A stretch of DNA of 64,000 nt from Corallococcus sp. AB038B (GCF_003668955.1 NZ_RAWO01000002.1:535605-599604); one strand, 5' to 3'. Counted from the first letter of the stretch, positions 5,837 through 41,258 are shown. The notes: generated by a model from the sequence alone, not told the origin. Made by a program: numbers and translations.

Positions 5837-5840
5837 GACC

Positions 5841-7238: not shown

Positions 7239-7264
7239 GGAGAAGGGATGGGCCCGTTGGGCCC

Positions 7265-8379: not shown

Positions 8380-8438
8380 TCAGCCCCCTCCTGCGTCTTC
8401 CGGGCTTCTATCGTTTCCCGGCACGCACGAACAACTCG

Positions 8439-9362
8439 CTACGCCCGATTCCCGCTCACACGCGCGATGAAGATACCCGCGTCCTCCAGGCTCAGGCCCC
8501 TGGCCACCGCGCCCAGGCCCTGGCCCGCCAGGGAGACGAGCGGCCGGGGGAGCTTGCGCAGGGCGTGCGCCCGGTCCGCCAGGCTGTCGGCCTCGAAGTC
8601 CAGGTCCCCGAAGGCGTCCACGCGCTCCAGGCCCACGCGCGGGAGCAGGGCGTCCATGGAGTCGTGGGTGAAGTAGCTCTCGTGCGGCGGAAAGGTGCCG
8701 GCCTGGTAGAGCTGCTCCAGAAGCCCCGACGAGGCCACGCCGGCCATGGCACGGGAGACGCGGTAGAGCAGACCGCTGGCCACCGGCACCTTCAACACCA
8801 CCCACTCCAACTCGGGCGCCAGCTGTGTGACGAGGTGGCGCACCATGTCCGTCAGGTGCGCACCCGGGAAGTGCTCCACGACGTCCAGAAGCGTGAGGAT
8901 GCGCGGACGGAAGGGCAGGTCCTGGAGGGGCAGGGGCCACTGTCCGCCCTCCGGAAGGGGCAGGCGCATGGCGGGGATGCCCGCGTCGCGCATCAGGTTG
9001 ACGGACAGCTCGGAGATGTCCGCGCCAGCCAGCTCCTGGACGCCCGCCTCGCGGCAGCCCTCCAGGAACCAGCCCCGGCCCGCACCGAAGTCCAGGAGCC
9101 GCGAGGGCTGGGGGATGTGGCGGCGCAGACGCTCGACGATGCTCCGGGCCTGGCGCTGGCGCGTGACGCGCAGCGAGTCCATGAAGCCACCGCTGTCGTA
9201 TTGCGCGTGGTAGTCGGCGGTGTTGCGCGGCGCGCGGTGGGTGGCCACTCGGTGGCCACAGCTCGCGCAGGTCTCCACGTCCAGCCGGGGCCCCTGGAAG
9301 GACGGTCGGAGCGAGGATGAAGCGCAGGCGGGACAGGAGGGGGCGGACATAGGGGGCGGCAC
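8439..9362 (-). CDS. SAM-dependent methyltransferase with an N-terminal Cys4 zinc ribbon.
   Basis: The N-terminus has CPAC...CASCGH. The segments ..LLDFGAGRGWFLEGC...LTLLDVVEHFP.. fit a class I MT fold. Confidence 0.65.
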   Translation of the reverse strand: MPPPMSAPSCPACASSSLRPSFQGPRLDVETCASCGHRVATHRAPRNTADYHAQYDSGGFMDSLRVTRQRQARSIVERLRRHIPQPSRLLDFGAGRGWFLEGCREAGVQELAGADISELSVNLMRDAGIPAMRLPLPEGGQWPLPLQDLPFRPRILTLLDVVEHFPGAHLTDMVRHLVTQLAPELEWVVLKVPVASGLLYRVSRAMAGVASSGLLEQLYQAGTFPPHESYFTHDSMDALLPRVGLERVDAFGDLDFEADSLADRAHALRKLPRPLVSLAGQGLGAVARGLSLEDAGIFIARVSGNRA

Positions 9363-9414
9363 CCTACCGCTTCCGCGCGTCCCCCGTCACGTGTCCGCCG
9401 GGCTTCCAGGCCAG

Positions 9415-9942
9415 CTAGCGGCCCCGTCGCCGCGAAGGCCCACGGCGCGGCGGTTCCTGCGCTGGCTCTGGAGACGGCTTCGGCGAAGGCTCCGGCGCCG
9501 CGGCAGGCTGGCGCGACGTCAGCTGCTCCAGCTGGCGCTCTACCTCCTGGCGCCACAGGGACTGCGTGCGCGCCTGCACGCGCTGGTGTTCGTGGATGAG
9601 CGCGAGCGCGTCCAGGATGGCCTCGTTGAACTCCACCTGTCGCCGGAGCGCCTCGTTGATGAAGGGCTGGAACGCCAGCCGGAAGGCGCGCTTGGCCATC
9701 ACCAGCGCGGGCCCCACCACGGGCCGGTGGGACGAAGGGGGGTCCGCGTAGCGCGCGTCGCGCTTCAGCCGCGCGCCCTCCAGGAACGGAGGCCACGCGG
9801 GGCTGGTGGCCGGGCCCTGGGTGGCGGCGAGGCGTCTGCGCAGCGCCTCCACCTTCTCGGGCTCGGGCGTGGGCAGCCGCTCCAGGGACTCCAGCACCGC
9901 CTTCACGGTGGGGTCGCCGGTGATGAGGTCCTCAGCTCGCAT
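9415..9942 (-). CDS. Hypothetical protein.
   Basis: It sits within the same-strand operon between the MT and the GT4. It overlaps the GT4 stop by 11 bp. The C-terminus is P/E/R-rich. Confidence 0.4.
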   Translation of the reverse strand: MRAEDLITGDPTVKAVLESLERLPTPEPEKVEALRRRLAATQGPATSPAWPPFLEGARLKRDARYADPPSSHRPVVGPALVMAKRAFRLAFQPFINEALRRQVEFNEAILDALALIHEHQRVQARTQSLWRQEVERQLEQLTSRQPAAAPEPSPKPSPEPAQEPPRRGPSRRRGR

Positions 9943-18827: not shown

Positions 18828-20567
18828 TCAAGGCGAGACCGCGGCCATGATGTACCGGGGCAGGAGTTCCTCGCGGAACTTCCGCCAGATGGCGACGTGG
18901 TTGTAGTTGCCCGCGGTGAACAGCACGACGAGGTCCAGCTCCGGGACGACCATCACGAGCTGGCCACCGTTGCCGCTGGCCTCGTACTGCGAATACACAC
19001 GGTCGCCGACGCGGAGCTCATGGCGCCACCACGTGTAGCCATAGGTCCGTCCGTCCGGCATCGTCGCCTGGTTCGCGACGGAGCGTTCCACCCAGCGCTG
19101 GCTGACCACGCGCTTCCCGTTCCAAGTGCCACCGGAGAGGTAGAGCTGCCCGAGCTTCAGGGCGTCGCGAGGGCGCATGTAGATGCCGCCGCCGAGGTAC
19201 TGCTCGCCGTCAGGCATCAGGTCCAGGTGGTAGCCGCGCATCTGGAGGGGCGTGGCGACGTTCTTCGTGAAGAACTCGGGGATCCACGTGCGGGTGGTGT
19301 TGCGGACGACGCCGCCCAGCAGGTTGATGTTCGCGGAGCAGTACACGGCCTTCCCGCCGCCGGGAGCACGGACCATGGGGAGGTCCAGCGTGTACTTGTA
19401 CCAATCCGGTACGGAGTCCTCGAGCCGGTCCTCGTTGCCGGGTGAATCCGGATTGTCGTCGTCACAAGCCAGGCCCGTCGCCATGGTCATCAGGTGCGCG
19501 ACGGTGAGCTTGCGCTTGCGCGCGTCCAGGTTGGAGAGCTTGCCTTTGTACGCGGGGAAGAGGGACGCGACGGGCGTGTCCACGGAGAAGGCCGCACCCT
19601 GGTCCAGGGCAATGCCAATCAACAGCGACGCGTAGGACTTGGAGGAGGAGCGCAGGTCGTGGGGGCGCTCCTTGTCGAAGCCCTGGAAGTACTCGTCGAC
19701 GATGAGCTTTCCGTGACGCGCGATGAGCAGCCCCTGGATGGCGGGCACTGAGTCCGGGCTGGGTTCCTGGTCGAGGATGCGCTGCACGAACTGCTGGAGC
19801 GGTTGGACGTCCATGCCGACGTCGGCAGGGGAGGCCGTGGTCCAGCCGTCGTCCTCCGCGATTGGCTTCTGGTAGGCGTAGGGGCCGGGAGCGGGCGTGC
19901 GCGAGTAGAGGCCCACGGCCTGCGACCGGTCCCGGCGGGTGAAGTCGAACGTCGTGTCGAAGGGAGGGTAGGGGAGCGACAGCCGTCCGGACTGCGAGTC
20001 GAACGTGCCTTCAATCTGGGTGTCGCCCTTGGTGGACGTGAGTCGGACCGTGCGGCCCTGGAGGTCGACACGGAAGAGCATCCGGTTGCCGAAGTTTCGC
20101 TCCGGGTTGCGGATGAACGCCGTCACGGAGCCGTCAGGCTGCTTCTGGACGACGAGGTACAGCGAGAACCGGTCCTCCAGCGGAGCCACGGTGCCGCGCC
20201 AGACGCCCGGCTGAAGTGCGCGCAGTTCCACGGGAGTGGCGAACTTCATGCCGCTCATGAGCACACGCGGCTGGATCCAGTGGCCCGTGATGCTCTGGCC
20301 GTTCTCCGCCAACGTGGCTCGGAGTTCGCCACCTGGGAAGACGACGGACACCTTCCGACTCTCAACCCGGGCAGGAACATCGAATCCGGCGATGCGCGCG
20401 CGCCAGGTGTTGCCCTCCCGAACCAGCGTCAGCTCGCCTCGGACTTGAGGACCCAGGACGCGCTCACTGCCCCAGATGCCCACCAATTGCTCGGCTGGAA
20501 TGGAAACAGCGCCGACATGGAGAGGAAGCAGCGCCAGCAGAAGCCCAAGGAAGCGATACCGGGTCAT
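18828..20567 (-). CDS. Secreted serine hydrolase, beta-lactamase/PBP4* family.
   Basis: A signal peptide is present. An SxxK motif (..RSSSKSY..) is embedded in a beta-lactamase-like domain. An N-terminal beta-rich domain precedes it. Confidence 0.75.
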   Translation of the reverse strand: MTRYRFLGLLLALLPLHVGAVSIPAEQLVGIWGSERVLGPQVRGELTLVREGNTWRARIAGFDVPARVESRKVSVVFPGGELRATLAENGQSITGHWIQPRVLMSGMKFATPVELRALQPGVWRGTVAPLEDRFSLYLVVQKQPDGSVTAFIRNPERNFGNRMLFRVDLQGRTVRLTSTKGDTQIEGTFDSQSGRLSLPYPPFDTTFDFTRRDRSQAVGLYSRTPAPGPYAYQKPIAEDDGWTTASPADVGMDVQPLQQFVQRILDQEPSPDSVPAIQGLLIARHGKLIVDEYFQGFDKERPHDLRSSSKSYASLLIGIALDQGAAFSVDTPVASLFPAYKGKLSNLDARKRKLTVAHLMTMATGLACDDDNPDSPGNEDRLEDSVPDWYKYTLDLPMVRAPGGGKAVYCSANINLLGGVVRNTTRTWIPEFFTKNVATPLQMRGYHLDLMPDGEQYLGGGIYMRPRDALKLGQLYLSGGTWNGKRVVSQRWVERSVANQATMPDGRTYGYTWWRHELRVGDRVYSQYEASGNGGQLVMVVPELDLVVLFTAGNYNHVAIWRKFREELLPRYIMAAVSP

Positions 20568-20588: not shown

Positions 20589-21686
20589 GTGACATCCCAA
20601 GTCGGCAAATACCAGCGCATCCGCCTGCTCACCGAAGACATCATCGAGGATCATCTGGCCAAGGCCGCCGGCCCGCGAGGCGTCGAGAAGACGCTGGTGC
20701 TCCAGTGCCTCCGCTCGGACATGGCCGAGCAGGTGAATTTCCCGGAGATGTTCCTCGACACGGCGAAGAGCGTCGCCCAGCTCAATCACCCGCACCTCGT
20801 GAAGGTCGTCGACTTCGGTGAGGCGGACGGCACGTACTTCCTCGCCAGGGAGCACGTCGATGGGCCCAGCCTGCGCAGGGTGATCAAGCACGTGGTGGCC
20901 CAGCGGTTGACCCTGCCGGCGACACTGTGCGCGCGCATCATCTCGCAAGCCTGTGAGGGGCTCGCCTATGCCCACGACCTCGCCGACCCCAAGACGAACC
21001 AGCCGCTGCGGCTCATCCACCGCTGTGTCCGGCCGTACAACATCCTCCTGTCGCGCCAGGGGACGACCCAGGTGGTGGACTTCGACATCGACTACTTCCG
21101 AGTCCGATGGGCCCCCGAATACTTCACCCCCAACCTGAGCAAGTACAGGTACATGGCGCCCGAGGAGATCATGGGCGTGTCGGTGGACCGGCGGGTGGAC
21201 GTCTACGCGCTGGGTCTGGTGCTCTACGAACTGCTCACCACGCGTAGGCCTTTTGAGTCCACATCCGACTGGGACTTGTTTCGTGCCGTCGTGTCCGAGC
21301 CCATCGTGCCCGCCGAGCAGCACCGGCCGGACCTGCCCGACGCCCTTCGAGCAATCCTCGCCCGGGCGCTCGCGAAGGATCGGGACGAGCGGTATCCGGA
21401 CTGCCACACGTTCCGGAAGGACCTGGAGGCTTTCATCCGTTCGGTGGGAGAGCCGGTGACGCCGAGGCAGCTGGCCCAACTCGTCCAGCAGGTCTCTCCG
21501 AGCGACGACCCGACCGTCATCCCCCCGGCTCCGGACGTCCCGGAGCGCCAGGCACGGCCCCGCGTGGGACGAGGCTGGATCCTCGCGGCGGCAGTGGGCC
21601 TGGGTCTCGTGCTCGGAGGCGGCGCCCTGCTCTGGAAGATGAACGCCGCGCCCGAGCCCGAGAAGGTTCGCGCTACTCCACGGTGA
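20589..21686 (+). CDS. Degenerate Ser/Thr-kinase-like protein (pseudokinase) with a C-terminal TM segment.
   Basis: The kinase fold is recognisable, but HRD is HRC (LIHRCVRPYNILL) and DFG is DFD. There is no GxGxxG loop. APE is retained (YMAPEEIMG). The start is uncertain (GTG at about 20589 or ATG at about 20517). The second option would overlap the divergent neighbour. Confidence 0.5.
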   Translation: MTSQVGKYQRIRLLTEDIIEDHLAKAAGPRGVEKTLVLQCLRSDMAEQVNFPEMFLDTAKSVAQLNHPHLVKVVDFGEADGTYFLAREHVDGPSLRRVIKHVVAQRLTLPATLCARIISQACEGLAYAHDLADPKTNQPLRLIHRCVRPYNILLSRQGTTQVVDFDIDYFRVRWAPEYFTPNLSKYRYMAPEEIMGVSVDRRVDVYALGLVLYELLTTRRPFESTSDWDLFRAVVSEPIVPAEQHRPDLPDALRAILARALAKDRDERYPDCHTFRKDLEAFIRSVGEPVTPRQLAQLVQQVSPSDDPTVIPPAPDVPERQARPRVGRGWILAAAVGLGLVLGGGALLWKMNAAPEPEKVRATPR

Positions 21687-23124
21687 TCGAGAACTGGGCG
21701 GATGCCGGATGGCCCGTCACCGCGAGGACGCGAGACTCCTCCTTGTCCCACTGCCACGCTTTGCCCTGCGACTGCCAGGAGCAGGGCTCGACGGTCATGG
21801 TCAGCGGTCCCGAGCCTTCGCTCCGGGGCTTGAAGGTCACCTCCAGCTCCGCGGTGGCCCCGCTCTCCAGTCCGGCGGAAACCCCCACGAGGTTCACGCG
21901 GTGCTCCTCCACCATCGGGAGTGGCTGACCGCGATACCGCACGCTCACGTCCATCACGCGAGCACCGACGAGCACCCCGGACACGCGGATCCGCACCGTC
22001 TCACACGCGGTCCCGTCATTGCGCACCACCGCCCGCCACGTCTCGGTCACAGGCGCGGACACGGCCAGCGGCGCCGAGGTGTGTTCGGTCCAGTGGAGCG
22101 TGGGCGTTTTGTAGCCCACGTGCATGAGCGGCGCGCCCGGACTCACCGGACGGTTCGACGCGTCGAGGCGCAAGGGCTGTCCGGGCTCGGCGGTGAGCAG
22201 GAAGAGCGCGTCACTGTCCTCGGGGCCCACCCACCACCGCTCAGTCCCCGCAGGCGTCACGGACACGAAGGAGGGCCACTCCCCGGCGAGCGTCTCGAGC
22301 ACCTGGAGCCCGGGCAGGGATACCAGGAGGGTCTTGTCCTGCACGAAGAGGAGCGCCCGCTCCGAGTCGAGAACGCACACCCCTTTACCGCCCCAGGTCA
22401 GTTCAACGTCATCTTCGTCCTCATCCTCATCGTTGGACGGGAGGGAGCCGAGCACGGTGCCGTCGAGCGCGAAGTGAAGGAGCACCGTCTGCCGGTAGTT
22501 GATGACGAGCAGGAGGAGCACTCCGTGGGGAGTGGCCTGGGCCCGCCAGATGTCCTGCTCATGGCCCGGCTCCACCTGGAGCGCGCCCTCCGGCTGAGCC
22601 GCCCCTGGCCGGAGCACATAGACGCGGCCCCGGCCCTTCTCCACGACGGTGATGCCAAAGGGGCTCGTGTCGAGGAACGCGCCATCGGGAGCCTGACGCT
22701 GGGGGCGCCCCTCGCTATAGCTGTACCCGTGGCTGGCGGGCACGGGCTTGGGCAAGGTCATGGGCGCCAATTGCTGCCCGGACCCGTCGGTCGTGAAGAG
22801 GGTGGTCAGCTTGAGGGCCGCGCCCACCACTGTTCCGATGAGCCGGTCCCCATCGGTGGTGAGATCGAAGCACTCCCTGGGAAGGACCTGGGCGGGAGCG
22901 CTCGCGCCGGCCCCCACGGAGAAGACACGCCGATCTCCGCTCCCCACCCAGACGTCCGTTGCCTCGTCGAGTGCGGCGAGCACCACGGGCGAGGACGGAT
23001 ACTCCGGCACGTCGCCTCCTACCTCCCGACGCACGCCTTCGGCGCCGTGGAAGACGATGAGCCGATTCGGTCTGAGATCAAACAACCACGGTCCACGGGC
23101 CAGGAGACGGCGTCTCGGGTGCAT
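21673..23124 (-). CDS. Hypothetical protein, beta-rich.
   Basis: The ORF is 483 aa with typical high-GC codon bias. It is convergent with the pseudokinase, and their 3' ends overlap by 14 bp. Confidence 0.45.
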   Translation of the reverse strand: MHPRRRLLARGPWLFDLRPNRLIVFHGAEGVRREVGGDVPEYPSSPVVLAALDEATDVWVGSGDRRVFSVGAGASAPAQVLPRECFDLTTDGDRLIGTVVGAALKLTTLFTTDGSGQQLAPMTLPKPVPASHGYSYSEGRPQRQAPDGAFLDTSPFGITVVEKGRGRVYVLRPGAAQPEGALQVEPGHEQDIWRAQATPHGVLLLLVINYRQTVLLHFALDGTVLGSLPSNDEDEDEDDVELTWGGKGVCVLDSERALLFVQDKTLLVSLPGLQVLETLAGEWPSFVSVTPAGTERWWVGPEDSDALFLLTAEPGQPLRLDASNRPVSPGAPLMHVGYKTPTLHWTEHTSAPLAVSAPVTETWRAVVRNDGTACETVRIRVSGVLVGARVMDVSVRYRGQPLPMVEEHRVNLVGVSAGLESGATAELEVTFKPRSEGSGPLTMTVEPCSWQSQGKAWQWDKEESRVLAVTGHPASAQFSITVE

Positions 23125-23189
23125 GGCTCTGCATCATACCCACTGACGCCCGTCTCCCTCCGGCATTAAGCTTTGTGGGCAGCTAGGTT

Positions 23190-23959
23190 ATCCATCAGCG
23201 CCACATCGCCTGAATGGAGCCAAGGGCAAATCCGCTGGCGGATGACTCGCCCGGAGATGCGGCCGTCGATGGCCCCTTGATGCGTCATCAACTTGGGGAA
23301 GACAGCCCTCGCGGATGGCGCCCACCAGCGTCAGGGGTGTCCAGCGTCCTCCAGGGTGCATGCATCGGGCGCGTTGGCCCATCGGAGCCCAGCTGTACTC
23401 GCGCCATGGATGTATTGCAGAAGGACTCGCCGAGGAAGACGATCCGCTGCACGTCCACAACGCTCAGGAGCGCGGCAAAGACGCTTCTGCTCCAGAAGCT
23501 TTGCGGTGCAGCGTGCTCGAAGGCGGTGAATGACTTTCTTGGGTGAGAAGCCCAGTAGATGCAGGCCCCTTTGGATTGAGGGACGGCCGGCGATGATTCC
23601 CAGGCGGGCCATCAACTCGGCCATCAGATCGCACACCGTCGCGTCCGGCTTCCGAGCCAGCAGTAGTTTGGACTCGCTGGCCACCTTGCCCCGAATAGGC
23701 GAGAAGTTGCCGTTGCCTTTGGGCCGCAGCACGACGTCTCCCGTCTCTCGGTACAGCCGGAGGCGCGGCTCACCGTCGCTTCCCCAATGCCTAGCATGTG
23801 AGCTATCTGCACATACGACAGGCCCTCGTCGTGGAAGGCCCGATCGATAGCCCGTCGCAGCTTCTCCGGGGGATGTCCTGCGCTCATCCCCAGAGAAGAG
23901 CAAGCCTCGGCGATCGCGCTAAACGAGTCCTGAGTTAATCGCAGCGTTCGCCGTTGCAA
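23190..23959 (-). pseudogene. IS630-family transposase remnant, frameshifted and 3'-truncated.
   Basis: An N-terminal HTH (..LSYVQIAHMLGIGEATVSR..) lies in one frame. It continues in a second frame (..LMAELMARLGIIAGRPSIQRGLHLLGFSPKK..) and in a third (..GDVALMDNLAAHKA*). The third matches the conserved ..MDNLSxHK.. region and is then truncated. Confidence 0.6.
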
Positions 23960-23962
23960 TGC

Positions 23963-24448
23963 TCATTTGTTCTGTAATTCTTCTTTGATCTTGGCGATAA
24001 TTGACAGTTGTCTTTTGAGTTCTCGTTCTTCTTCGTTGATGACGAGCAGTAGCTTGTAGGGGTTTCGATGGCGCTGTCGAGTTAGCTGTCGTTTGAATTG
24101 ATTGGAGAGTCCTCCATGTACTCCAATCGTGAGCTGTCTGCGTAACTGGTCACGCAGGCGACGATACTCGCTGCCGGTCAGTCTTGAGTTTTCTTGCGCA
24201 GCAGCCAAGCCAAAAAGGGCGCGTAGTTGCTTCCCGTATTCAGATACTAACGCAAATGTGATGCCAAGCACCGCCAGCGTCATCGAGATGACGAGAAGGG
24301 CTATTTTTGTTTTGAACTCTCGTCCGCTTGGTGTGAGTGCGAATACGCTCACGGCTACTGCCGTGCCAGTTAGTGCGGATGAGACAAGCAGTCTCTTGAG
24401 TATGCGGTCAGGTTGAGAAGGTGTCGGTTTTGAATTTTTCTGCTGCAT
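23963..24448 (-). CDS. Small membrane protein with two TM helices and a cytoplasmic coiled coil; lower GC than the flanking genome.
   Basis: The ORF is 161 aa. The region is clearly AT-richer than the flanks. Two hydrophobic helices are followed by an R/Q/E/L-rich heptad region. Confidence 0.5.
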   Translation of the reverse strand: MQQKNSKPTPSQPDRILKRLLVSSALTGTAVAVSVFALTPSGREFKTKIALLVISMTLAVLGITFALVSEYGKQLRALFGLAAAQENSRLTGSEYRRLRDQLRRQLTIGVHGGLSNQFKRQLTRQRHRNPYKLLLVINEEERELKRQLSIIAKIKEELQNK

Positions 24449-24454
24449 AGATAT

Positions 24455-24952
24455 TTACTCCGTCTCGACCTGTTGGTGGATGGGCTTTGTTTGTGGGGTT
24501 TTCCTTGTAGGGGATATGTCTGATTGGCTGTTTGATGCGTCTTGATGGATGCCAACGCCTTTTATGAATAGAAAAGCGAGTAGCAAGCCTGAGCCGAGTA
24601 AGTTGCAAACGCCGGCGAGCGCGATGATGTGCCACTTGTCGAAGGGTTGACCCTCGAAGTGCTGATGGAGGGTCAGTATGAGCATGAAAACGACGAGCGA
24701 AATCAGGGTGAAGCCGACGATTCCGAGTACTCTGCGCCAGTCCTGCTGATGGCTTTGTTGCGCTAGTTCTCCAATGTATATGATGGCAGATGTCAGTGCG
24801 GCAGTGGATGATTCGATTCCAAGGAAGTATAACGGCCAATCATTCCACGCCTTCTTGCTGATGAGCTTTTTGGCAAGAACCCCAATGATTAAAAGGATAA
24901 ACGGGGGGAAGAATGCGAAGAAATAGGGGCTTTGTAAAAACTCGCCGTTCAT
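24455..24952 (-). CDS. Small four-TM membrane protein; lower GC than the flanking genome.
   Basis: The ORF is 165 aa with four hydrophobic helices. Its stop lies 7 bp before the start of the next membrane protein, so the two form an operon. Confidence 0.5.
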   Translation of the reverse strand: MNGEFLQSPYFFAFFPPFILLIIGVLAKKLISKKAWNDWPLYFLGIESSTAALTSAIIYIGELAQQSHQQDWRRVLGIVGFTLISLVVFMLILTLHQHFEGQPFDKWHIIALAGVCNLLGSGLLLAFLFIKGVGIHQDASNSQSDISPTRKTPQTKPIHQQVETE

Positions 24953-25248
24953 ACGATGGTGGATTTGAGGTGCATAATTTTGGTCGAGTGATGATGGTAG
25001 AGAATTGAATTGGATTTAAGTGCCATTGTAACGCCTTGTTCGACCTCTTGTCCTGAACATGCAGCATGGCACAAAAGAGGGGGTAGGTGTGTCCATGGGC
25101 CGCTTGTGTGCATCCTTCCTTCATTCGGGGCCCAGATCATCAGACTTGCATGAAGAGCCAACACATGGTGGCGGGGGCCGTCCGGCCAACGATGTGCCGG
25201 ATCGCTTGAGGGCGGACGGGTGTCTCGATCGCCGAACCACTCGACGGT

Positions 25249-25518
25249 TCAGGAATCGCTGTGCATGGAATGCGGCTTCTGGAAGAGTCGGCGGCGCGTT
25301 GGCAACTCCACTCGTGCGGCAGCAGTTCCTCGATGCACATCCTGGTGCGTCTGGACGCCCAACGGTACGTCGGTGAGGTACGCCTCGGGATTCACGCCGT
25401 CAGCCTCACGCATGGCGGCGAGGGGGCAGAGGTCTGCGAGGTTGTTCCTGAGGCCTTGTGGCCGACGAAAGGAAGTTCTTGCGGACAGTGCCAAGGCCCA
25501 GGTAAGCGGAGCGCGCAA
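25249..25518 (-). pseudogene. IS66-family transposase C-terminal fragment.
   Basis: ..NLADLCPLAAMREADGVNPEAYLTDV.. resembles the conserved TnpC C-terminal ..LNGxDPEAYLRDVL.. motif. No full ORF is present. Confidence 0.4.
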
Positions 25519-25968
25519 GGGTTGATTGAAGGGAACGCATACGCTGACCGCTCAGGACTGGCTACTTGCCCCACGCACGTGCGAAGAGCGGGGTATGGGT
25601 GCAGACCTGTTCAGGTTTCGGCGAGGCTGGCCCTGTCGCTCCCGAGCACACGGGCTCGCGGGCCTGATCGAAACCACCATCCAATAAGGTAAACCGCGAG
25701 CAGTCCCATAGGGGCCTATGACAACGCACTGAAGACGGGAGCGCTATGCCATGAAAAGCGCGGACGACAAATAGCCGCCGCTTTTCAGTGTGAGTTTTTG
25801 GTTGATATTTCTCAGTAGCTTCAATAGTCCCAACTCGCCTCAGGTAAGGCCTGAATCAGGAGGCTGGTTTTGATGGCAGGCAGGAAATTGCTTGCATCCA
25901 CTATGGAGTGTCTGCCGAGCGAGGTTTTATGGGTTCGAATTTATTGATGCCGCTGTCTTGGAACTTGT

Positions 25969-27255
25969 TTATTGGTCACCACTGACGTGCCACTCTGCCC
26001 GAGCTAAGAGTTCGTCGAATGTGATGATTTCCGGTTCATACAAGTTGCGTCTGTAGAGTTCGAATGACTGGTATTTATCGCGATGCACGCCACCGCCCGA
26101 GCCCCGAAGTTGGTCCAGATGTCCTGCGATAAGGAAGGAACGCGGCCTGACGACAAAGGTCCCATCCTGTGTTTCTGCCCCGTCTTCATCCGTGTCGGAT
26201 AGATATGAACCTATCTGTTTTGCAGCCAGATGAATCGTCTGCTGCACCTGAGTGACACCTCCGACAAGCTCTGGAGAAGGTGCCCAACAGCCTGGGCGAT
26301 ACTCTTGGCTTGCGAGCAGTTTGGTTTCGTGGTGTTTAATTTCTGCGAACACCATTGCGCGAATTCTGCCATTGGTGCGCATAAGGGCATCTGCGCGCTT
26401 GCCGGAACCTGCGATCGAGAAGCCGGCGACTACTTGCTCCAGTTTGTTTTTGCTCCAGGATGTCAAAAGTTGACCAGTTAAGCTGATGCCCAGGATCCAC
26501 GGGTTTTGTTCAAGAAGTGCCTGCCAGACCTGCTCCCGGCTACCCCCATGCAGGACTCGCGCGCGCTCGAAATGGTTCTCATCGGAGAGCAGATCTCGGA
26601 ACTCTTGAACCACCTTCTTGCGGTGGGCAAGTGCAACGAGATCCTCAGCCGAAGCGTCGTTCTCAATGATTTGGCGGAATTTGGCAGGGTCCCGAGAGTA
26701 CAAACGAAGCATTGCCTCAGGATCGGCGAAGAAGTCGCGAATCGTTTGATCGTCTATTCGGATTCTTGATTCCCCTCCTTCAACTGGAATGTGTTTGAGT
26801 GCCTGAATCATGTCAACGAGCCTTGCCGCAGCTTCGCGATCGAGAGTCAGGAGATTCTCAAGTTTTGTTGCGTCACCGCTCGTGGGAACTCGCTGGATTT
26901 GCAGTTCTCTGACTTGGCCCGTTTCCCGGGCAATTTGTATCTTAATTTGCTTGCGACCACCTGGCGTGGTGAACACTGTTTGCTCCGTCCGCTCTAGGTT
27001 GTGGGGTGTATTTTCGGGTTGATTTGGCTCATTAGACTCGTCGAAAACCTTGACTATGAAGCGAGCTGGCTGGCCGTAGTCCTGTGAGGCACGTAGATCC
27101 AGGGTGAAGGTACGGTGGATGTAAGTGCAGTCAGTTCTTCGGCCGCGCGCATACGTCACTTCGTTAGGTTTGAAAATGACATTTCGAGGTTCGCTATTGT
27201 TGCCCCCCGGCAATGGCGCGTTCACCCGTCGTTCATGCTCGTAGTCATGTGGCAT
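25969..27255 (-). CDS. Shedu-like (DUF4263-type) PD-(D/E)xK nuclease-domain protein; putative anti-phage defence.
   Basis: The C-terminal region ..LEQNPWILGISLTG...GKRADALMRTNGRIRAMVFAEIKHHETKLL.. fits the D...ExK core of the PD-(D/E)xK/DUF4263 family. The N-terminal half is unrelated. GC is clearly lower than the flanking genome. The ORF is 428 aa. Confidence 0.55.
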   Translation of the reverse strand: MPHDYEHERRVNAPLPGGNNSEPRNVIFKPNEVTYARGRRTDCTYIHRTFTLDLRASQDYGQPARFIVKVFDESNEPNQPENTPHNLERTEQTVFTTPGGRKQIKIQIARETGQVRELQIQRVPTSGDATKLENLLTLDREAAARLVDMIQALKHIPVEGGESRIRIDDQTIRDFFADPEAMLRLYSRDPAKFRQIIENDASAEDLVALAHRKKVVQEFRDLLSDENHFERARVLHGGSREQVWQALLEQNPWILGISLTGQLLTSWSKNKLEQVVAGFSIAGSGKRADALMRTNGRIRAMVFAEIKHHETKLLASQEYRPGCWAPSPELVGGVTQVQQTIHLAAKQIGSYLSDTDEDGAETQDGTFVVRPRSFLIAGHLDQLRGSGGGVHRDKYQSFELYRRNLYEPEIITFDELLARAEWHVSGDQ

Positions 27256-27831
27256 TTTTTTGCCTCTAGCCTATTCGCGAAGGCGTGCCGCAGCGAGTTT
27301 CTACGTTATTGCCGAATCTTCTTGGCGGGGACGTCTTGGGTGTTGGTCAAGTTGGGCACTTGCAGGGTTGGGGATGTAGGGAGGTAACGAAGTTCCTTGG
27401 GTGCTTGCATCCTCTCTAGAGGGCATCAGTCATGAGGTAGACATCAACGCCCGCGTCGGCGTTCTTGGCGCCCTTGACCTCCCGCTTGAGGGGAGTGTAT
27501 CGGTTCAGCTTGAAATCCTGGGCCCGCATGCTGTGTGAGTGATACCGGCATCTTCATCGAAAATGAACTCGGTCTTCGAGGTCATGCTTCTGACCTGTGC
27601 AGTGGATGCCAGCGTCTTGCTGGTGGGGGCCGCTGCGACGGGTCGGCACGGCGGACACTGACTTCAACCTGAGGTGAATCAGCTTCTCCCAACTGGAAGA
27701 GCGGTGTCTTGGCCGACTTCGCTCTGCTTTGGCATCACCCGGAAGCGGGATGGACACGGGCACGAAAACGCCGCCTCGCTTCCGGATGACCGGAAACGGG
27801 CGGCGTGGGCACAGCCTGAACTGACGAAGAA

Positions 27832-29430
27832 CTACCGGCGCTTCTGCGCCGCGTCCGCGTGCTTCTCCATGAACTCCGAATACGGGCCGTTGAAGTCGAG
27901 CACTTCCTTGCCCGCCTCCAGGCTCCAGATGCGGGTCGCGACCTCGGAGATGAGCTCCTGGTCGTGCGTCACGCAGATGACCGTGCCGTCGAACTTCGAC
28001 AGGCCTTCGGCCAGCGCCGCGATGGACTCCAGGTCCAGGTGGTTCGTCGGCTCGTCCAGGATGAGCACGTTGTCCTGCGTGATCATCAGCTTGGACAACA
28101 GCACGCGCACCGTCTCACCACCGGAGAGCGTGTCCGTGGGCTTCATCCGCTCCTCACCCGAGAAGAGCATCCGGCCCAACACGCCCGAAATCTCCTCGTT
28201 CGTCAGCTTCTCGCTGATCTCCCGCAGGTAGCCGAAGCACGTCGTCCCCTTGTGGATGACGCCGTGGTGGTCCTGCGGCAGGTAGCCCACCGTCGCCTGG
28301 TGGCCCCAGGTGATGGTCCCCGCGTCCGGCTCCAGCTGGTTGGCCAGCATCTTCACCAGCGTGGACTTACCCACGGCGTTGCGGCCAATCACGCAGATGC
28401 GCTCGCCCTTGCAGACCAGGCCCGTGAACGGCTTGATGACCGGCACCCCGTCGAAGGACTTCTTCAGGCCCTCGAACATCAGCGTCTGACGACCGCTGAT
28501 CACCTTCTGGTCGAACCGGATGAACGGCCGCGCGATGTTCGAGCGCTTCAGGTCCTCCGTCTTCAGCTTGTCGATCTGCTTGATGCGGCTCTGCACCTGC
28601 GACGCTCGCGTACCGGCGTGGAAGCGCGCCACGAAGTCCTGCAGCTGGGCGATCTTCTTCTTCTTCTCTTCCGTCTCGGACTCGACCCGGGTCCGCAGCT
28701 GCGACTTCTGCCGGACCATGTCGTCGTAACCACCCGTGTACTGGATGATGGTCTCGTAATCGATGTCCGCGATGTGCGTGCAGATGGAGTTCAGGAAGTG
28801 CCGGTCGTGGCTGATGGTGATCAGCACGCCCTCGTACACATGGAGGAAGTTCTCCAGCCAGCGGATGGAGTCGATATCCAGGTTGTTCGTGGGCTCGTCG
28901 AGCAGCAGCCCCTCCGGCTTGCCGAACAGCGCCTGCGCGAGCAGCACTCGCAGCTTCAGGCCGCCCGTCAGCTGGCGCATGGGCTCTTCGTGGAAGGACT
29001 CCTCGATGCCCAGGCCGGCCAGCAGCGTGGCCGCGTCGCTCTCCGCCGAGTAGCCGTCCTCTTCCGCGATGACGCCTTCCAGCTCACCCAGCCGGTTGCC
29101 GTCCTCCTCGGTGATGTCGGCCTTGGCCAGGAGCTTGTTCTTCTCGTCCATCGCCGCCCACAGGTGGCGGTTGCCCATCAGCACCACGTCGATGACGCGG
29201 TCGCTCTCGTAGCGGAAGTGGTCCTGGCGCAGGATGCCCAGCTTCCGCGGGCGGATGATGTCGCCCATGTCCTGCTCCTCGTCTCCCGCGAGGATCTTCA
29301 TGAACGTGGACTTGCCGGCCCCGTTCGGACCGGTCAGGCCGTAGCGGCGGCCCGGCGAGAAGGCGACGTTGACCTCCTCGAACAGCTTCTTGGGCCCATA
29401 GGCCTTGGAGACGTTGATGACGTTGAACAT
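27832..29430 (-). CDS. ABC-F family ATPase (translation factor type, two ABC domains).
   Basis: It is read from MFNVINVSKAYGPKK (532 aa). Two Walker A motifs (GPNGAGKST / GRNAVGKST) and two LSGG signatures are present. The upstream part of the track ORF is non-coding. Confidence 0.85.
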   Translation of the reverse strand: MFNVINVSKAYGPKKLFEEVNVAFSPGRRYGLTGPNGAGKSTFMKILAGDEEQDMGDIIRPRKLGILRQDHFRYESDRVIDVVLMGNRHLWAAMDEKNKLLAKADITEEDGNRLGELEGVIAEEDGYSAESDAATLLAGLGIEESFHEEPMRQLTGGLKLRVLLAQALFGKPEGLLLDEPTNNLDIDSIRWLENFLHVYEGVLITISHDRHFLNSICTHIADIDYETIIQYTGGYDDMVRQKSQLRTRVESETEEKKKKIAQLQDFVARFHAGTRASQVQSRIKQIDKLKTEDLKRSNIARPFIRFDQKVISGRQTLMFEGLKKSFDGVPVIKPFTGLVCKGERICVIGRNAVGKSTLVKMLANQLEPDAGTITWGHQATVGYLPQDHHGVIHKGTTCFGYLREISEKLTNEEISGVLGRMLFSGEERMKPTDTLSGGETVRVLLSKLMITQDNVLILDEPTNHLDLESIAALAEGLSKFDGTVICVTHDQELISEVATRIWSLEAGKEVLDFNGPYSEFMEKHADAAQKRR

Positions 29431-29479
29431 GGCGGCGGCTTGTAACGGAAATGGCGCGGCGACCCAAGACGCGCGGTAA

Positions 29480-36459: not shown

Positions 36460-39400
36460 TCAGTTCCCCCGGGCCGGGTTCTGACGGCGACGCGACGAGC
36501 CCCAGGCCGCCAGCGCGGCGAGGAGCGCCAGCGCGGACGTGGTGCCACCGGTGCTGTTGCAGCCACCGCCGGCAATCTCCACGACCTGCGCCTGGACCCG
36601 GACCTGGAACGTGCACTGCGCGGTGTTGCCCGCCGCATCCGTCGCGGTGACGGTGACCTGCGTGGCACCGGCGGGGAAATCACTGCCCGACGCGGGCGAG
36701 GACGTCACGGTCGGATTGGCTGTCACCGCGTCCGTGGCCGTGGGCGTGAACGTCACCTGCGTGTTCGGCGCCACGGTGATGTCCGCGGGGCAGGTGAGGG
36801 TGGGCGCCGTGGTGTCCTGCACCGTCACCTGGAAGGTACAGGTGAGGCCGGTGGAGGTCGCGGTGACCGTCGTGGTGCCAATCGGGAACAGCGAGCCCGA
36901 CGGCTGCGAGTAGCTCACCGGGAGCCCTCCCGCCGGCTCCAGCACGGCGGGGTCGTAGGTCACGAGCGCGCCGTCTGGATCCGTCGCCTCCACGGTGAGG
37001 TTCGCGGGGCAGGTGAGGGTGGGGGGCACCGCGTCGTCCGTCACGTTGAGGGTCACGGTCGCGATGTTGCTGTCGTCGGCGCAGTCACGGACCCGGTAGG
37101 TGAAGCTGTCGGTGCCCACGAAGCCGGGGTTGGGGGTGTACTCGAGCGTCCCCTGCGCGCTGGTGCCGAGCGTGCCGTGCTGCGGCTGGGTGACCGCGGT
37201 CCAGCTCAACACCTGACCGGGGTCCGGATCCGTGCCGCTCAGGGCGATCGCCGTGACCGTGTCCTTCGGAACGACGACCGTCTGGTCCGCAGCCGTCGGA
37301 GGACGGTTGGCGACGACGGTCACCATCCGCCCGCCGGAGATGGCGTTGGCGAAGACGGACAGCCCGTAGGTGCCCACCGGCACGTCCGCGGGGACGGTCA
37401 CCGTCGCGCGCGTGGCCGAGGTGTTGCTGGAGGGAAGCGTCCAGAGACGCCCGCCTTCCGCGGCGCGGAACCGCACCAGGGGGAAGTCGGTGGGGGAGTC
37501 CGAGTAGCTGCCGCTGCTGCCTCCGGAGATGCCCCGGAACAGCATGCCCTCCAGGACGGTGGGGCAGGCCGCGACGAGGGTCACCGGATTCGTCACCGTG
37601 GGCCGCCACGCGGGCTGGGCGCCGTTCTCGTTGAACAGCTCCGCGTCGGGCGCACCCACGCCTCCCACGAGGAGGACTTCGCCTGAAGGCAGCGCGGTGG
37701 AGATCAGCCCTCCGCGCGTGGTGGGGTCCGCGACGGTCGTGAAGATGCGCAGCTGGGGATCGAAGATCTCCGCGGTGTCGACGTACGCGCCCAGGTCGGT
37801 CAGGCCGCCCGCGATCAGGACCTTGCCGGAGGGCAGCAATGTGGCGGTGTGGTGATAGCGCGACTGCGAGAGCGAGCCCACCGGAGTCCAGGTGTTCGTG
37901 GCGGGGTCGTACAGCTCCGCGGACGTGAGGTACGTGAGGCCCACGAGTCCTCCCGCCGCCAGCACCTGGCCCGAGGGCAGCAGCGTCAGCGTCAGCTCGT
38001 CCCGGATACCATTGAGGCTCGCCGCGGGGGCCCAGGTGTTCGTGACGGGGTCGTACAGCTCCGCCGAAGCCGTCTCCACGCCGGTGTTGTCATGGCCGCC
38101 AGCGACGAGCACCCTGCCGTCGTGGAGCAGCACCGCGCCATGGCTTGCACGCGCGACAGTGGGAGGCGCCGCCGCGCTCCAGGTGTTGGCGTCGGGCGAG
38201 TAGATCTCCGCGGAGGCGAGCACCGCGGCGTTGCGCTGGCCACCGGACACGAACACCCGGCCATCCGGAAGGAGCGTGGCGGAGTGGAGGTGCCTCGTGC
38301 CGAGGAGGTCGGCGGTGGGCAGCCAGGTTCCGGTGGTGGAGTCGTAGCGTTGGGCGGAGGCCGTCGAGACGCCCGCGTTGCGGCCACCGGCGACCAGCAC
38401 CTGGCCGGAGCGCAGGACGGTCGCGGTCGCGCGCTCGCGGGGCACGGCGAGCGCGGGCGCGGCGCTCCAGCTGTTGCTCGCGCGGTCATACACCTCCACC
38501 GCCGCCGAGGAACTGACGCCACGGCCTCCCGCGACGAGCACCTGACCGCCAGGCAGCAGCGCCACCATGGGGTCCGTCCGGGGCGTGCCCATGGCGCCGG
38601 CCGGGGACCACTGGCTCGCGGCGGGGTCGTAGACCTCCGTCTGCGCGAAGAACGTCAGGCCGGGGAGCTGGGCGAACCCGCCCGTGACGAACACCTTGCC
38701 CGAGGGCAGCAGCGTCGCGGTGTGGTTCTCGCGGGCGATGTTCATCGTGCCCGCGGAGGTCCAGGTGCCGGTGGCGGGGTCGTAGAGCTCCGATTCGATC
38801 TGCGCCGCCCTGGAAGTGTTGGAACCGCCGGTGACGAGGACGCGGCCATTGGGCAGCAACGTGGCCATGTGGCTGGCGCGCGGGAACGCGAGGCTGCCGG
38901 TCGCGGTCCAGGTGTTGGCGGCCGGGTCGTAGAGCTCCGACTGGGCCGTGACACCGCTCGCGGTGAAGCCACCCGCGACGAGCACGCGGCCGTCGGGCAG
39001 CAGGGTGCTGGTGGAGTAGTGGCGGGCCACCAGCGGGGGCGCGGCGGCGGACCAGGTGCCGCTGGCCGGATCGTAGAGGTCGGCGCCGGGCACCTCTCCG
39101 CTGCCGCTGAAGCCGCTCACCGCGAGCACCCGCCCGTCACGCAGCCGCGTCGACATGTGCGCGCCGCGGCCCTCGGTCATGGCGCCCGTGGCGGTGAAGG
39201 TGTTGGTCGCGGGGTCGTACAGTTCCGCGGTCGTGAGCCGGACGCCGCCACCGCCGGTGCCGCCCGCGATGAGGACCTGTCCCGTGGCCAGCAGCGTGGC
39301 CGTGGGGAGCGCGCGGGTCGTGGACATGTTGCCCGTGGCGGCCCAGGTGTTGGCGACGGGATCATAGAGGCGCCCCCCCTGCGAGCCATCGGTCAGCACC

Positions 39401-39759
39401 AGCACCCGGCCCGTGGGCAGGAGCACGGCCAGGGTGACGTTGCCCGTGAGGCTGGAGGGGCCCGCGGAGGCCCAGGTGCTGGTGGCGGGATCGTAGGTCT
39501 CCGCCGTGCCCACGAATCCGGACGAGTTGACGCCGTTGACGACGAGCAGTTTCCCGTTGGGGAGCAGGACGGCCGCGTGTTGCCCGCGTGCCGTCGCCAT
39601 GGACGGGGTGGCGTACCAGGCCGGCGCCGTCGCGAGACGGGCGTGCGTGGTGCGGATGCCCTCGGATGCCGCCGGGCGCTCGTTCCCGCCGCAGGAAAGA
39701 AGGCCCAGGCTCGCGGCGAACAACAGGAGCCTGCTCCAGACAGCGCGTTGTGACCGCAT
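36460..39759 (-). CDS. Kelch/galactose-oxidase-type beta-propeller surface protein with Ig-like domains and a MYXO-CTERM sorting tag.
   Basis: An N-terminal lipoprotein signal (..LGLLSCGG) is present. More than 20 Kelch-like blades (..GRVLV.GG...AELYDP..TW..) are present. The C-terminus reads ..GGGCNSTGG..ALALLAALAAWGSSRRR. The protein is 1099 aa. Confidence 0.75.
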   Translation of the reverse strand: MRSQRAVWSRLLLFAASLGLLSCGGNERPAASEGIRTTHARLATAPAWYATPSMATARGQHAAVLLPNGKLLVVNGVNSSGFVGTAETYDPATSTWASAGPSSLTGNVTLAVLLPTGRVLVLTDGSQGGRLYDPVANTWAATGNMSTTRALPTATLLATGQVLIAGGTGGGGVRLTTAELYDPATNTFTATGAMTEGRGAHMSTRLRDGRVLAVSGFSGSGEVPGADLYDPASGTWSAAAPPLVARHYSTSTLLPDGRVLVAGGFTASGVTAQSELYDPAANTWTATGSLAFPRASHMATLLPNGRVLVTGGSNTSRAAQIESELYDPATGTWTSAGTMNIARENHTATLLPSGKVFVTGGFAQLPGLTFFAQTEVYDPAASQWSPAGAMGTPRTDPMVALLPGGQVLVAGGRGVSSSAAVEVYDRASNSWSAAPALAVPRERATATVLRSGQVLVAGGRNAGVSTASAQRYDSTTGTWLPTADLLGTRHLHSATLLPDGRVFVSGGQRNAAVLASAEIYSPDANTWSAAAPPTVARASHGAVLLHDGRVLVAGGHDNTGVETASAELYDPVTNTWAPAASLNGIRDELTLTLLPSGQVLAAGGLVGLTYLTSAELYDPATNTWTPVGSLSQSRYHHTATLLPSGKVLIAGGLTDLGAYVDTAEIFDPQLRIFTTVADPTTRGGLISTALPSGEVLLVGGVGAPDAELFNENGAQPAWRPTVTNPVTLVAACPTVLEGMLFRGISGGSSGSYSDSPTDFPLVRFRAAEGGRLWTLPSSNTSATRATVTVPADVPVGTYGLSVFANAISGGRMVTVVANRPPTAADQTVVVPKDTVTAIALSGTDPDPGQVLSWTAVTQPQHGTLGTSAQGTLEYTPNPGFVGTDSFTYRVRDCADDSNIATVTLNVTDDAVPPTLTCPANLTVEATDPDGALVTYDPAVLEPAGGLPVSYSQPSGSLFPIGTTTVTATSTGLTCTFQVTVQDTTAPTLTCPADITVAPNTQVTFTPTATDAVTANPTVTSSPASGSDFPAGATQVTVTATDAAGNTAQCTFQVRVQAQVVEIAGGGCNSTGGTTSALALLAALAAWGSSRRRQNPARGN

Positions 39760-39888: not shown

Positions 39889-40905
39889 TCATCCGCCGCG
39901 TGGGTCGTAGATTTTCTCGGGAGGGGCCTCCAGGAAGCGGCGCCACCAGAGACGGGCCTCGTCGTCGGTGTAGCCGTCCCAGGTGTTGACGTGGGGGAAG
40001 GGCAGGAGCCAGGGCTCCAGGAACCGGGCCAGCTCGCGATACGCCGGCAGTGTCTCACCCAGCTTCGTGTCCCCGGCGAGCGGCTCGGGGCCCAGGCTGA
40101 TCAGGGCGCGGCCTCCGGTGAGTTCCTGGACGGTGGTCTCCGGATGGCTCAGATGCGAGCGAAGTGCCTGGATACCGCCAACGGTTTCGAGCAGGGGAGG
40201 GCCCAGGAAGTTCAGCCAGTGCACGTCGTCAATCCACGGTCCCAAGCCCCACGCCAGCGTAGGCGGAACGTGCCAGCCGGGATGCCTGGACAGCTGCTCT
40301 TTAAGCAGGGGAAGAAGTTTCGACCTCCCGCGTGTGAATGAGAGCGACAGCCCGGCATGGCCCGTGGAGAGCGGAAGAAGCTCCGCCAGAGACCGTGCCA
40401 GTGCAAAGGCCTTCTCGGGCCCCTGTGTCTCCAGGAAGCTTATCGGGAGCTTCACGCTCAGCACGCTGTGCTCGGAAGTGGGTTCTCTCCATGGGAGCCG
40501 AGACTCGAAACTGAATTCATAGCCATCTGGCTCCGAATGTCCTCCCTTGAGGATGACCCATGTGTCGAAGCCCCTCTTGGTCAATCTTCGGAACCAGTAG
40601 GAGTCTTGATCCATGTCGTCCAGGTATTCGAATCGAGACTTGGTGAGGTGGCGTTGAGCTTCCTCCCAAAACTCGGACTCAAGCGGGAAGGCATCCTCAA
40701 TGACGTCGGAATCCTCTCCGACGGTCAGTGCCCCGCCACTGGCAGCAATGAATCCGAGATAGGTGTCGAGGACCCGTCGTAGGACTGGGGCCAGCACTCC
40801 GTGGTCATGCGGCAGGTAGAACACGATGCGCAGGACCAGTTGGACCCGGGGGAGCGTCGGGGCGAAGTGTTGCAGGAACGGATACTTACTCACGCACGAC
40901 TCCAA
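39889..40905 (-). CDS. Hypothetical protein (possibly DUF3396/immunity-like; not verified).
   Basis: The ORF is 338 aa with good codon bias. It is the last gene of a three-gene same-strand operon. Confidence 0.5.
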
Positions 40906-40967
40906 ACTGGGGCGTGATGATCGCGGGCTTGCACTTTCCTCTCAGCTCCGCGTAGCGGGCCATTTGT

Positions 40968-41258
40968 TCACGGGTTCCGTCGTTGGAGAGGGGGTCGCCC
41001 TTGCTTTTCATCGTGCACGGGAACTTGAGGTCGAAAATGCATTGGATTTGGAATCGTGGCGCCCGCGGAAGCCGCTGCCCTCACGGCCTTGTCCATCCAA
41101 GGCAGGAACGCCTCATCCCCCGGCTGCGTGTAGCAGGTGGGATTGCGCAGACATCCACTGGTCGCGGAGTCCGTGGTCTGCGCGTACTGCCTTGGACCCG
41201 AAGCGCACGACAGACAGAGCAGGGCCACCAGCCCACCCAGGAGGCGCAACTCAATCAT
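40968..41258 (-). CDS. Small lipoprotein (about 96 aa), hypothetical.
   Basis: MIELRLLGGLVALLCLSCASG has a signal and lipobox. Its ATG overlaps the stop of the upstream gene (ATGA). The track ORF 40968..41438 extends upstream as a non-coding artefact. Confidence 0.4.
   Translation of the reverse strand: MIELRLLGGLVALLCLSCASGPRQYAQTTDSATSGCLRNPTCYTQPGDEAFLPWMDKAVRAAASAGATIPNPMHFRPQVPVHDEKQGRPPLQRRNP

Follow-up and report, generated by a model that had tools for sequence, protein, structure and literature searches.

A Shedu nuclease gene in the mosaic cargo of a probable defence hotspot of Corallococcus

We analysed a stretch of 64,000 nucleotides from Corallococcus sp. AB038B (GCF_003668955.1, NZ_RAWO01000002.1:535605-599604; hereafter the window, with positions counted from its first nucleotide) and, within it, a segment of about 4.6 kb at 23171..27732 that is delimited by synteny and marked by low guanine-plus-cytosine (GC) content and deviant tetranucleotide composition. 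The segment lies between a conserved gene for a hypothetical protein of 483 amino acids (aa) and the gene of an ABC-F ATPase. It very probably represents the present content of a Corallococcus defence hotspot, a mosaic that consists of the Shedu nuclease gene sduA, a separate cassette of two membrane protein genes, debris of insertion sequences (IS) of the IS630 and IS66 families, and a decayed gene for a secreted protein, with SduA as the sole functional defence unit. An earlier interpretation of the same DNA, made from the nucleotides alone (the sequence-only reading), had taken the region both for horizontally acquired accessory DNA with a defence gene and IS scars and for the best candidate for a novel system in the window. 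The former claim is supported by the composition, the IS remnants and the variable presence among relatives. The latter lacks support, given that the defence gene belongs to standard type 1 Shedu and is already annotated.

The compositional anomaly of the segment is pronounced. In 500-bp windows across the 64 kb, the mean GC content is 0.546 (range 0.486-0.638) within 23171-27732 compared to 0.694 (standard deviation (sd) 0.033, minimum 0.582) in the remaining ~59 kb. In 2-kb windows, the tetranucleotide L1 distance from the background is 0.57-0.63 inside the segment as opposed to 0.22 (sd 0.034, maximum 0.297) outside, a shift of more than 10 sd from the rest of the window. The AT-rich stretch that had been recognised by eye is thus real, and the computed profile is not uniform. 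There are two lobes of low GC content, at 23963-25250 (0.49-0.54) and 25601-27732 (0.53-0.57). Between them, at 25251-25600, the value rises to a host-like 0.63 where the IS66 fragment lies, and the segment as a whole is a mosaic of three GC levels. In blastn comparisons with the sister loci described below, the conserved flank ends at about 23170, 46 bp upstream of the 483-aa gene, and restarts at 27733-27766, 66-100 bp downstream of the ABC-F stop codon; therefore, the variable segment is 23171-27732 and occupies the entire intergenic space between the two anchor genes. The extent of 23190-27300 originally proposed was right as to location and slightly too narrow when the segment is defined by synteny. 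The left anchor, the 483-aa gene (21673..23124, minus strand), shows 79-85% aa identity in eight genomes of Corallococcus, Pyxidicoccus, Hyalangium and Myxococcus, and the right anchor, the ABC-F gene (27832..29433, minus strand; NCBIfam PRK15064, E-value 3e-183), shows 98-99% aa identity in the four sister loci that share this arrangement, with a GC-rich hairpin at 27836-27851 in its stop/terminator region. All three open reading frames (ORFs) of the segment are on the minus strand and encode proteins of 161 aa (23963..24448), 165 aa (24455..24952) and 428 aa (25969..27255), in agreement with the initial description of the cargo as two small membrane proteins and a 428-aa Shedu/DUF4263-like protein. 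Each of the three has a 100% identical match among the proteins of Corallococcus sp. AB038B.

By its sequence, the 428-aa protein is an ordinary type 1 Shedu SduA, already catalogued and called automatically by standard defence-finding software. The apparently intact sduA gene (25969..27255, minus strand) encodes a PD-(D/E)xK nuclease that matches the Pfam family SduA_C (PF14082, DUF4263) across model positions 2-159 of 159 (E-value 2.8e-32, above the cut-off) as well as 13 PADLOC SduA models, the best of which is PDLC00394 (E-value 3.3e-134, model positions 3-385 of 392). The only matches to SduA in a sequence search of the PDB were the Bacillus cereus Shedu structures 8ti8/8ti9 (E-value 8e-13; 3e-21 with a profile) and the Escherichia coli SduA 8ps4. 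The active-site motifs of the B. cereus protein have been identified as E204 (motif I), D249 (II), E264/K266 (III) and Q295 (IV) (10.1101/2023.08.10.552793). Alignment to 8ti8 places the equivalent residues of the window protein at E241, D289, E305/K307 and Q336, all of which are invariant in 40 of 40 homologues. In the AlphaFold2 model, the nuclease core is confidently predicted (predicted local distance difference test (pLDDT) 80-94), with a fold that agrees with the solved Shedu structures, and the N-terminus is poorly predicted (~50-60); the modelled layout comprises a beta-rich N-terminal part (strands within 43-138, helix 140-155) that is connected through a helical linker (169-235) to the nuclease. 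This is the type 1 architecture, in which ~235 residues precede the nuclease domain, and it is conserved across more than 1000 homologues. These full-length homologues, with 57-88% identity over at least 90% of the length, come from Cystobacter, Pseudonocardia, Actinomycetospora, Mycolicibacterium and many metagenomes, and the protein of the window itself is named 'Shedu immune nuclease family protein' by NCBI. Such a profile, with a full-length PADLOC match, an NCBI name and homologues in these numbers, lends no support to the proposal of a novel system.

The window protein shares with the Shedu proteins of known structure (B. cereus B4264 SduA, 8TI8/8TI9; E. coli SduA, 8PS4/8PS5) the nuclease domain, motifs I-IV and the type 1 layout. 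It differs from them in the ~235 N-terminal residues, which have no detectable sequence similarity to either the B. cereus or the E. coli protein because the alignments to the solved structures begin only at residue ~216-239; furthermore, it exceeds the B. cereus enzyme by ~45 residues in length and belongs to a myxobacterium with a GC content of 69%. Type 1 Shedu proteins are classed by their N-terminal sensor domain, for example 1A (sPC4/Whirly), 1B (NRF1) and 1C (NRF2). In this N-terminal region, seven of the 16 residues between positions 36 and 145 that are invariant among the 40 homologues are basic (R39, R65, K69, R101, R116, R140 and R145), a pattern that would fit nucleic-acid sensing.

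Type 1 Shedu forms a homotetramer, and in the B. cereus protein the N-terminal domains hold the nuclease off through sequestration of the motif II aspartate, with activation leading to an octamer and double-strand cleavage (10.1101/2023.08.10.552793, 10.1101/2023.08.10.552762). In our interpretation, SduA alone is the functional defence unit of the segment. Since it is homologous to the enzymes of B. cereus and E. coli, it probably forms a homotetramer, and the ~235-residue beta-rich N-terminal region with its six invariant arginines would keep the C-terminal PD-(D/E)xK nuclease inactive. Release might be triggered by some property of the incoming DNA, for instance free ends or overhangs, whereupon the activated SduA would nick or cut this DNA, with the circular host chromosome presumably offering no target.

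The genomic evidence suggests that SduA is a stand-alone, single-gene unit. C. exercitus AB043A (88% aa identity, at the same site) and Cystobacter fuscus (81% aa identity, at another site) have SduA of the same lineage but lack the two membrane genes beside it. This bears directly on the single three-gene cargo that the sequence-only reading had implied, a system in which, for example, SduA would act as sensor or nuclease and the two membrane proteins as effectors, comparable to the two-component KELShedu. The three genes do share one strand and one low-GC segment, and a two-component Shedu variant has been described (PMC12577705). However, about 1 kb separates sduA from the membrane cassette and holds the IS66 fragment of host-like GC content, the GC content differs between the cassette (0.49) and sduA (0.53), and orthologues of SduA are found without the membrane genes in the two genomes just mentioned. 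Conversely, the family of the 165-aa protein, which has four transmembrane (TM) segments, occurs elsewhere without Shedu: none of the 20 relatives inspected had an adjoining gene annotated or recognised as SduA. Against this background, a three-gene system appears extremely improbable, and, as far as can be judged from sequence, the two membrane genes are unrelated to Shedu and are not part of it.

The evidence for the hotspot comes from the same site in sister genomes. One genome per species was scanned with the 483-aa protein, which yielded eight loci. Four of these have an ABC-F gene within 10 kb on the same side, namely those of C. exercitus SDU142 (L001), C. exercitus AB043A (L002), C. 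aberystwythensis (L003) and C. carmarthensis (L004). The other four (L005-L008) contain the 483-aa gene with neither ABC-F within 10 kb nor a low-GC patch, and are therefore uninformative with respect to the site. Across the five genomes in which the two anchors are the same (the window and L001-L004), five different contents are found between them. The insert of L001 (7373-9764) encodes PD-Lambda-1 (PADLOC, 1.6e-153; DUF4041 and T5orf172) followed by a DUF3800 protein (PDC-M04A, 1.5e-36). That of L002 contains a gene for a 145-aa secreted protein, the SduA gene (88% aa identity), a 425-bp duplicate from a beta-lactamase-family gene and a 153-bp piece of IS630. In L003, there are copies of IS5 and IS630, a weakly matched HEPN-like protein, a P-loop protein, an mREase-like protein, and a second 3' end of the ABC-F gene. 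The insert of L004 encodes a Kelch/Big_7 secreted protein (833 aa, 5222-7723) and an ATPase-methyltransferase fusion (7886-9784, minus strand; 632 aa), in which an AAA_21/SMC-type ATPase similar to AriA, PtuA and OLD is joined to a C-terminal S-adenosylmethionine-dependent methyltransferase; this fusion has no full-length PADLOC match and is a candidate for an uncharacterised defence gene. In every genome the inserts are GC-depressed, at 0.57-0.62 compared to 0.66-0.69 in the surroundings. The sequence-only reading had pointed out that the same segment in the same context in all relatives would indicate core DNA; the content of L001-L004 proved to differ.

How the cargo is exchanged can be glimpsed in L003, where the final ~540 bp of the ABC-F gene and the region downstream of it are present once more inside the insert (6572-7234). 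This inner copy is 95.0% identical to the resident copy of its own genome and 96.7% identical to the allele of C. exercitus AB043A, which suggests that cargo moves between lineages along with flanking DNA and enters by recombination. The site lies between the ABC-F terminator and the promoter region of the 483-aa gene, and turnover of its cargo probably proceeds through recombination in the conserved flanks and IS-mediated rearrangement, without a dedicated integrase.

Two smaller rearrangements were observed at the same site. In L002, a degenerate duplicate of ~425 bp (4242-4666; 81% nucleotide identity) of the beta-lactamase-family gene at window 20091-20517 is located between sduA and the IS630 scrap, and provides evidence of local rearrangement. 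In L004, an inverted 94-bp copy (7729-7822; 84% identity) of the ABC-F stop/terminator at window 27766-27855 lies between the two cargo genes.

The segment has a deviant composition and its presence varies among relatives, and the classical machinery of genomic islands, namely an integrase or recombinase, a tRNA gene or att site and direct repeats, was not found. Specifically, no tRNA or other non-coding RNA (no Rfam match) and no integrase-like ORF was recognised in 23171-27732, the flanking direct and inverted repeats are only short ones at chance level, and the numbers of promoter and terminator matches are not clearly above chance. These results matter for the alternative that the segment is a decayed integrated mobile element, whether a prophage, an integrative and conjugative element or an IS-bounded composite transposon, that brought in all the cargo together. 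The remnants of IS630 and IS66, the foreign composition and the PHROG match of the 4-TM family would be in line with such an origin. However, the segment is bounded neither by an integrase or tRNA gene nor by att-like direct repeats or terminal inverted repeats. It is moreover a mosaic of three GC levels of which only part is common to L002, and unrelated cargo occupies the space between identical flanks in the other genomes. Furthermore, a composite transposon does not fit IS pieces that are host-like in GC content and represent two separate families. We accordingly consider a single decayed element quite unlikely, and mosaic hotspot cargo the better description of the segment.

The transposase remnants themselves could be identified in spite of their decay. 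At the left edge, a frameshifted and 3'-truncated IS630-family transposase had been noticed in the sequence-only reading, and we confirmed it as a pseudogene at 23169..23959 (minus strand) that is truncated exactly at the conserved flank. It consists of five frame segments separated by four frameshifts and stops after the DNLAAHK motif. Without stitching, a six-frame Pfam search detected the helix-turn-helix and DDE_3 domains marginally only (E-value 0.048); the hand-stitched protein matches HTH_29/HTH_23 and DDE_3, the latter with an E-value of 6.4e-5 (23.3 bits, where the cut-off is 28.6; profile positions 2-93 of 146), and in tblastn annotated IS630 transposases from 587 plasmid records, with E-values down to 3e-13. 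Compared with intact members of this Tc1/mariner-like DDE_3 family, the remnant is dead, given that the last third of the DDE domain, with the third catalytic region, is gone. A 153-bp piece of the same remnant is also present in L002, and L003, with its own IS630 and IS5 proteins, offers no match to it in either of them. The C-terminal fragment of IS66 TnpC, likewise reported before, is badly decayed: it lies at 25290..25478 (minus strand), is split over two frames and retains only the C-terminal ~60 codons, so that it too is dead. Once stitched, it matches DDE_Tnp_IS66_C with an E-value of 6e-4 (20.4 bits, where the cut-off is 30), and in tblastn it reaches 1e-4 with annotated IS66 transposases. 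Terminal inverted repeats were not found for either remnant. With their host-like GC content (0.63; 0.625 for the IS630 remnant), the two are resident IS debris rather than the vehicle of the foreign DNA. The right flank, previously described as holding only short broken ORFs, is indeed broken, but it is more than a set of mere ORFs: it contains the pseudogene of a 145-aa signal-peptide protein (27318..27648, minus strand), which is spread over three frames and was recovered by tblastn in three pieces with a combined E-value of 2e-20. The same gene is intact in C. exercitus AB043A (L002, 1890-2327).

Several points weigh against the interpretation of the segment as hotspot cargo with SduA as its functional unit. 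The comparison covers only eight species-representative genomes, and none of those sampled has an empty site; therefore, the history of insertion as opposed to replacement is inferred. The transposase assignments depend on hand-stitched reading frames. The GC content of sduA is low (0.53-0.56) in three myxobacterial hosts and may partly reflect a constraint of the family itself rather than recent arrival only. With regard to function, one mechanism has been proposed for the Shedu of B. cereus and a different one for that of E. coli, and there is no experiment on the SduA of the window, nor did we find one in the literature on any member of its close clade.

Chromosomal defence hotspots, in which variable cargo is carried between core genes, are known in E. 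coli and Pseudomonas. The Corallococcus site resembles them in having identical flanking genes, genome-specific cargo rich in known and candidate defence genes, low GC content and IS debris, and differs in being small (2.6-8.4 kb) and in lacking an integrase or tRNA anchor, as seen in the five genomes compared. Hotspots of defence genes carried by phages have also been described (PMC9122126). We found no paper that mentions this site in literature searches that were aimed at other questions, and regard the identification of the interval between the ABC-F gene and the 483-aa gene as a defence hotspot in Corallococcus as a modestly new point. The main feature itself adds little new biology, being one more Shedu gene. 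Screening of the hotspot across the many sequenced myxobacterial genomes, by comparison, would be a cheap source of candidate defence genes, of which the C. carmarthensis fusion is an example, in a phylum whose phage defence has been little studied. A separate observation concerns Cystobacter fuscus (L037; CP043492.1, 4216332-4231600), where SduA is located in a patch of ~10 kb with a GC content of 51-62%, together with a Mrr_cat restriction-type gene, a Ser/Thr kinase and a Pua-like/Metallophos protein; by appearance, this patch is a further defence island, and its location is unrelated to the Corallococcus site.

The membrane cassette is another part of the cargo. Its first gene (24455..24952, minus strand) encodes the 165-aa protein, a 4-TM protein of an unnamed family. 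An HMMER scan of 1.84 billion representative proteins gave 105 relatives at E<=1e-3 (the best at 6e-14), which are 126-150 aa long, align to residues 5-133 with 28-42% identity and share the motifs KKLVRG..W..DFYLGVE, HQDWE and N..G...F..VKGV. The phrog_25392 family (function unknown) matches the 165-aa protein at 3.8e-7 and one of its relatives at 4e-19, and the AlphaFold2 model is a four-helix bundle (pLDDT 82). The protein has no match among Pfam, NCBIfam or PADLOC families, a fold search of the PDB with the model returned nothing significant, and tblastn of the family against deposited phage genomes gave no match. It belongs to neither DUF2270 nor SLATT. A sigma-70-like promoter match (AGGACA-18-TACAAT; 25025..25054, minus strand) ~73 nt upstream of the gene is the sole one in 5 kb, yet the count is not above the shuffle expectation, and the match is weak evidence for a promoter.

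The second gene (23963..24448, minus strand) begins 6 nt past the 4-TM gene, with a GGAG 10 nt upstream of its start. By hydropathy and position, its 161-aa product consists of an N-terminal 2-TM hairpin (segments 20-38 and 45-70) and a charged tail of ~90 aa. In a word-indexed search of 5.8 billion proteins, both membrane proteins had returned only themselves, and both could have been taken for orphans; this status was overturned by HMMER for the 165-aa protein, and the 161-aa protein retains the self-hit alone in that search. These self-hits, the lack of a Pfam family and the absence of a clear Shine-Dalgarno sequence ahead of the 165-aa ORF might be taken to indicate that the two are chance ORFs in AT-richer DNA and not genes. 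We regard this as very improbable given the 105 homologues with conserved motifs and the confident four-helix model of the 165-aa ORF, and given that the 161-aa ORF follows at 6 nt with its own GGAG and has the topology of a conserved partner gene.

This conserved arrangement emerged from the contexts of the relatives of the 4-TM protein, of which 21 could be assessed (10 from the representatives and 11 from a metagenome scan). In 20 of the 21, the 4-TM gene is followed within 26 nt by a gene whose product starts with a 2-TM hairpin; the rest of the partner in most contexts is nothing or a short tail (58-124 aa). In position and topology, the 161-aa protein is equivalent to these partners. A profile of the partner hairpins gave it a score of 2.2 compared to 0.75 (sd 1.5) for shuffled sequences, with 79 of 498 shuffles scoring equal or higher. 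Since this is no more than its composition accounts for, we do not claim that the second gene is homologous. In four of the 20 contexts (L016, 8001-9034; L018, 7148-8211; L021, 585-1720; L026, 1668-2697), the partner contains TIR_2 above the Pfam threshold and also matches the PADLOC ThsB and PDC-S66 models; these tight two-gene operons of a 4-TM protein and a 2-TM-anchored TIR_2 protein are found on contigs from metagenomes or metagenome-assembled genomes with a GC content of 45-63%. Another partner (L022) has 677 aa with two or three TM segments and a TPR array, and that of L029 has a GAF domain at sub-threshold level. Most genes around the 4-TM relatives are of the housekeeping type, and toxin-antitoxin genes lie close by in just two of the seven annotated contexts.

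Such pairs call to mind defence systems in which a TIR protein is combined with a TM effector, that is, Thoeris types II and V-XI (10.64898/2025.12.03.692087) and the 2TM-TIR effectors of Pycsar and CBASS. According to a 2025 preprint, many operons that encode a TIR protein and a TM effector are new Thoeris types (10.64898/2025.12.03.692087), and the 4-TM relatives in the four contexts above are likewise paired with a TIR protein. There are also differences: the partner in the window is without TIR, the TIR proteins of the relatives are themselves anchored by a 2-TM hairpin, and the 4-TM protein matches no PADLOC model. No TIR or other domain was recognised in either the 161-aa or the 165-aa protein, so the cassette lacks the TIR protein of a Thoeris-like system. 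When the cargo was checked against the PADLOC defence models, as the sequence-only reading had proposed, SduA was matched and no model fitted the two membrane proteins.

It could nevertheless be that the cassette is an undescribed, widely scattered two-gene module of defence or conflict that landed at the site independently of sduA. Such a module would combine the 4-TM protein with a 2-TM partner that can bear different cytoplasmic domains in exchange for one another (TIR, TPR, GAF-like or none), and would cause abortive infection by acting on the membrane, with a logic akin to that of Thoeris systems with TM effectors. In favour of this possibility are the two-gene architecture kept in nearly all contexts, the four TIR_2 partners with their ThsB and PDC-S66 matches, the known Thoeris operons of this kind, the PHROG match of the family, and the location of the window copy at a site where sister genomes have defence genes. 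On the other side, the 161-aa partner lacks TIR or any recognised domain and has no similarity to the other partners beyond composition, most partners are short (58-124 aa) and without an effector domain, and the 4-TM protein has no match in PADLOC, in deposited phage genomes or in the PDB fold search. The neighbourhoods of the relatives are mostly housekeeping, with few toxin-antitoxin genes, and a defence role of the cassette is therefore rated as possible but unproven, and on balance doubtful. SduA remains the one functional defence unit in our interpretation of the segment. As a conserved module without a name, the pair of a 4-TM protein and a 2-TM-hairpin partner is a modestly new finding. 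The occasional fusion of the cassette to TIR in other taxa makes it a candidate, open to testing, for a conflict system of a new kind that is linked to the membrane.

Outside the segment, two further genes of the window drew our attention. A 338-aa ORF at 39889-40905 (minus strand) matches Pfam TsiV, the type VI immunity protein for VRR-NUC effectors, with an E-value of 3.4e-39. It falls within a second low-GC patch, 40201-41100, which is the only other stretch of the window with a GC content below 0.60, and may be a horizontally acquired orphan immunity gene of a type VI secretion system. Also in the window, at 36460-39759 (minus strand), is the gene of a 1099-aa secreted Kelch-repeat protein (Kelch, Big_9 and HYR); a Kelch protein is also part of the hotspot cargo in L004.

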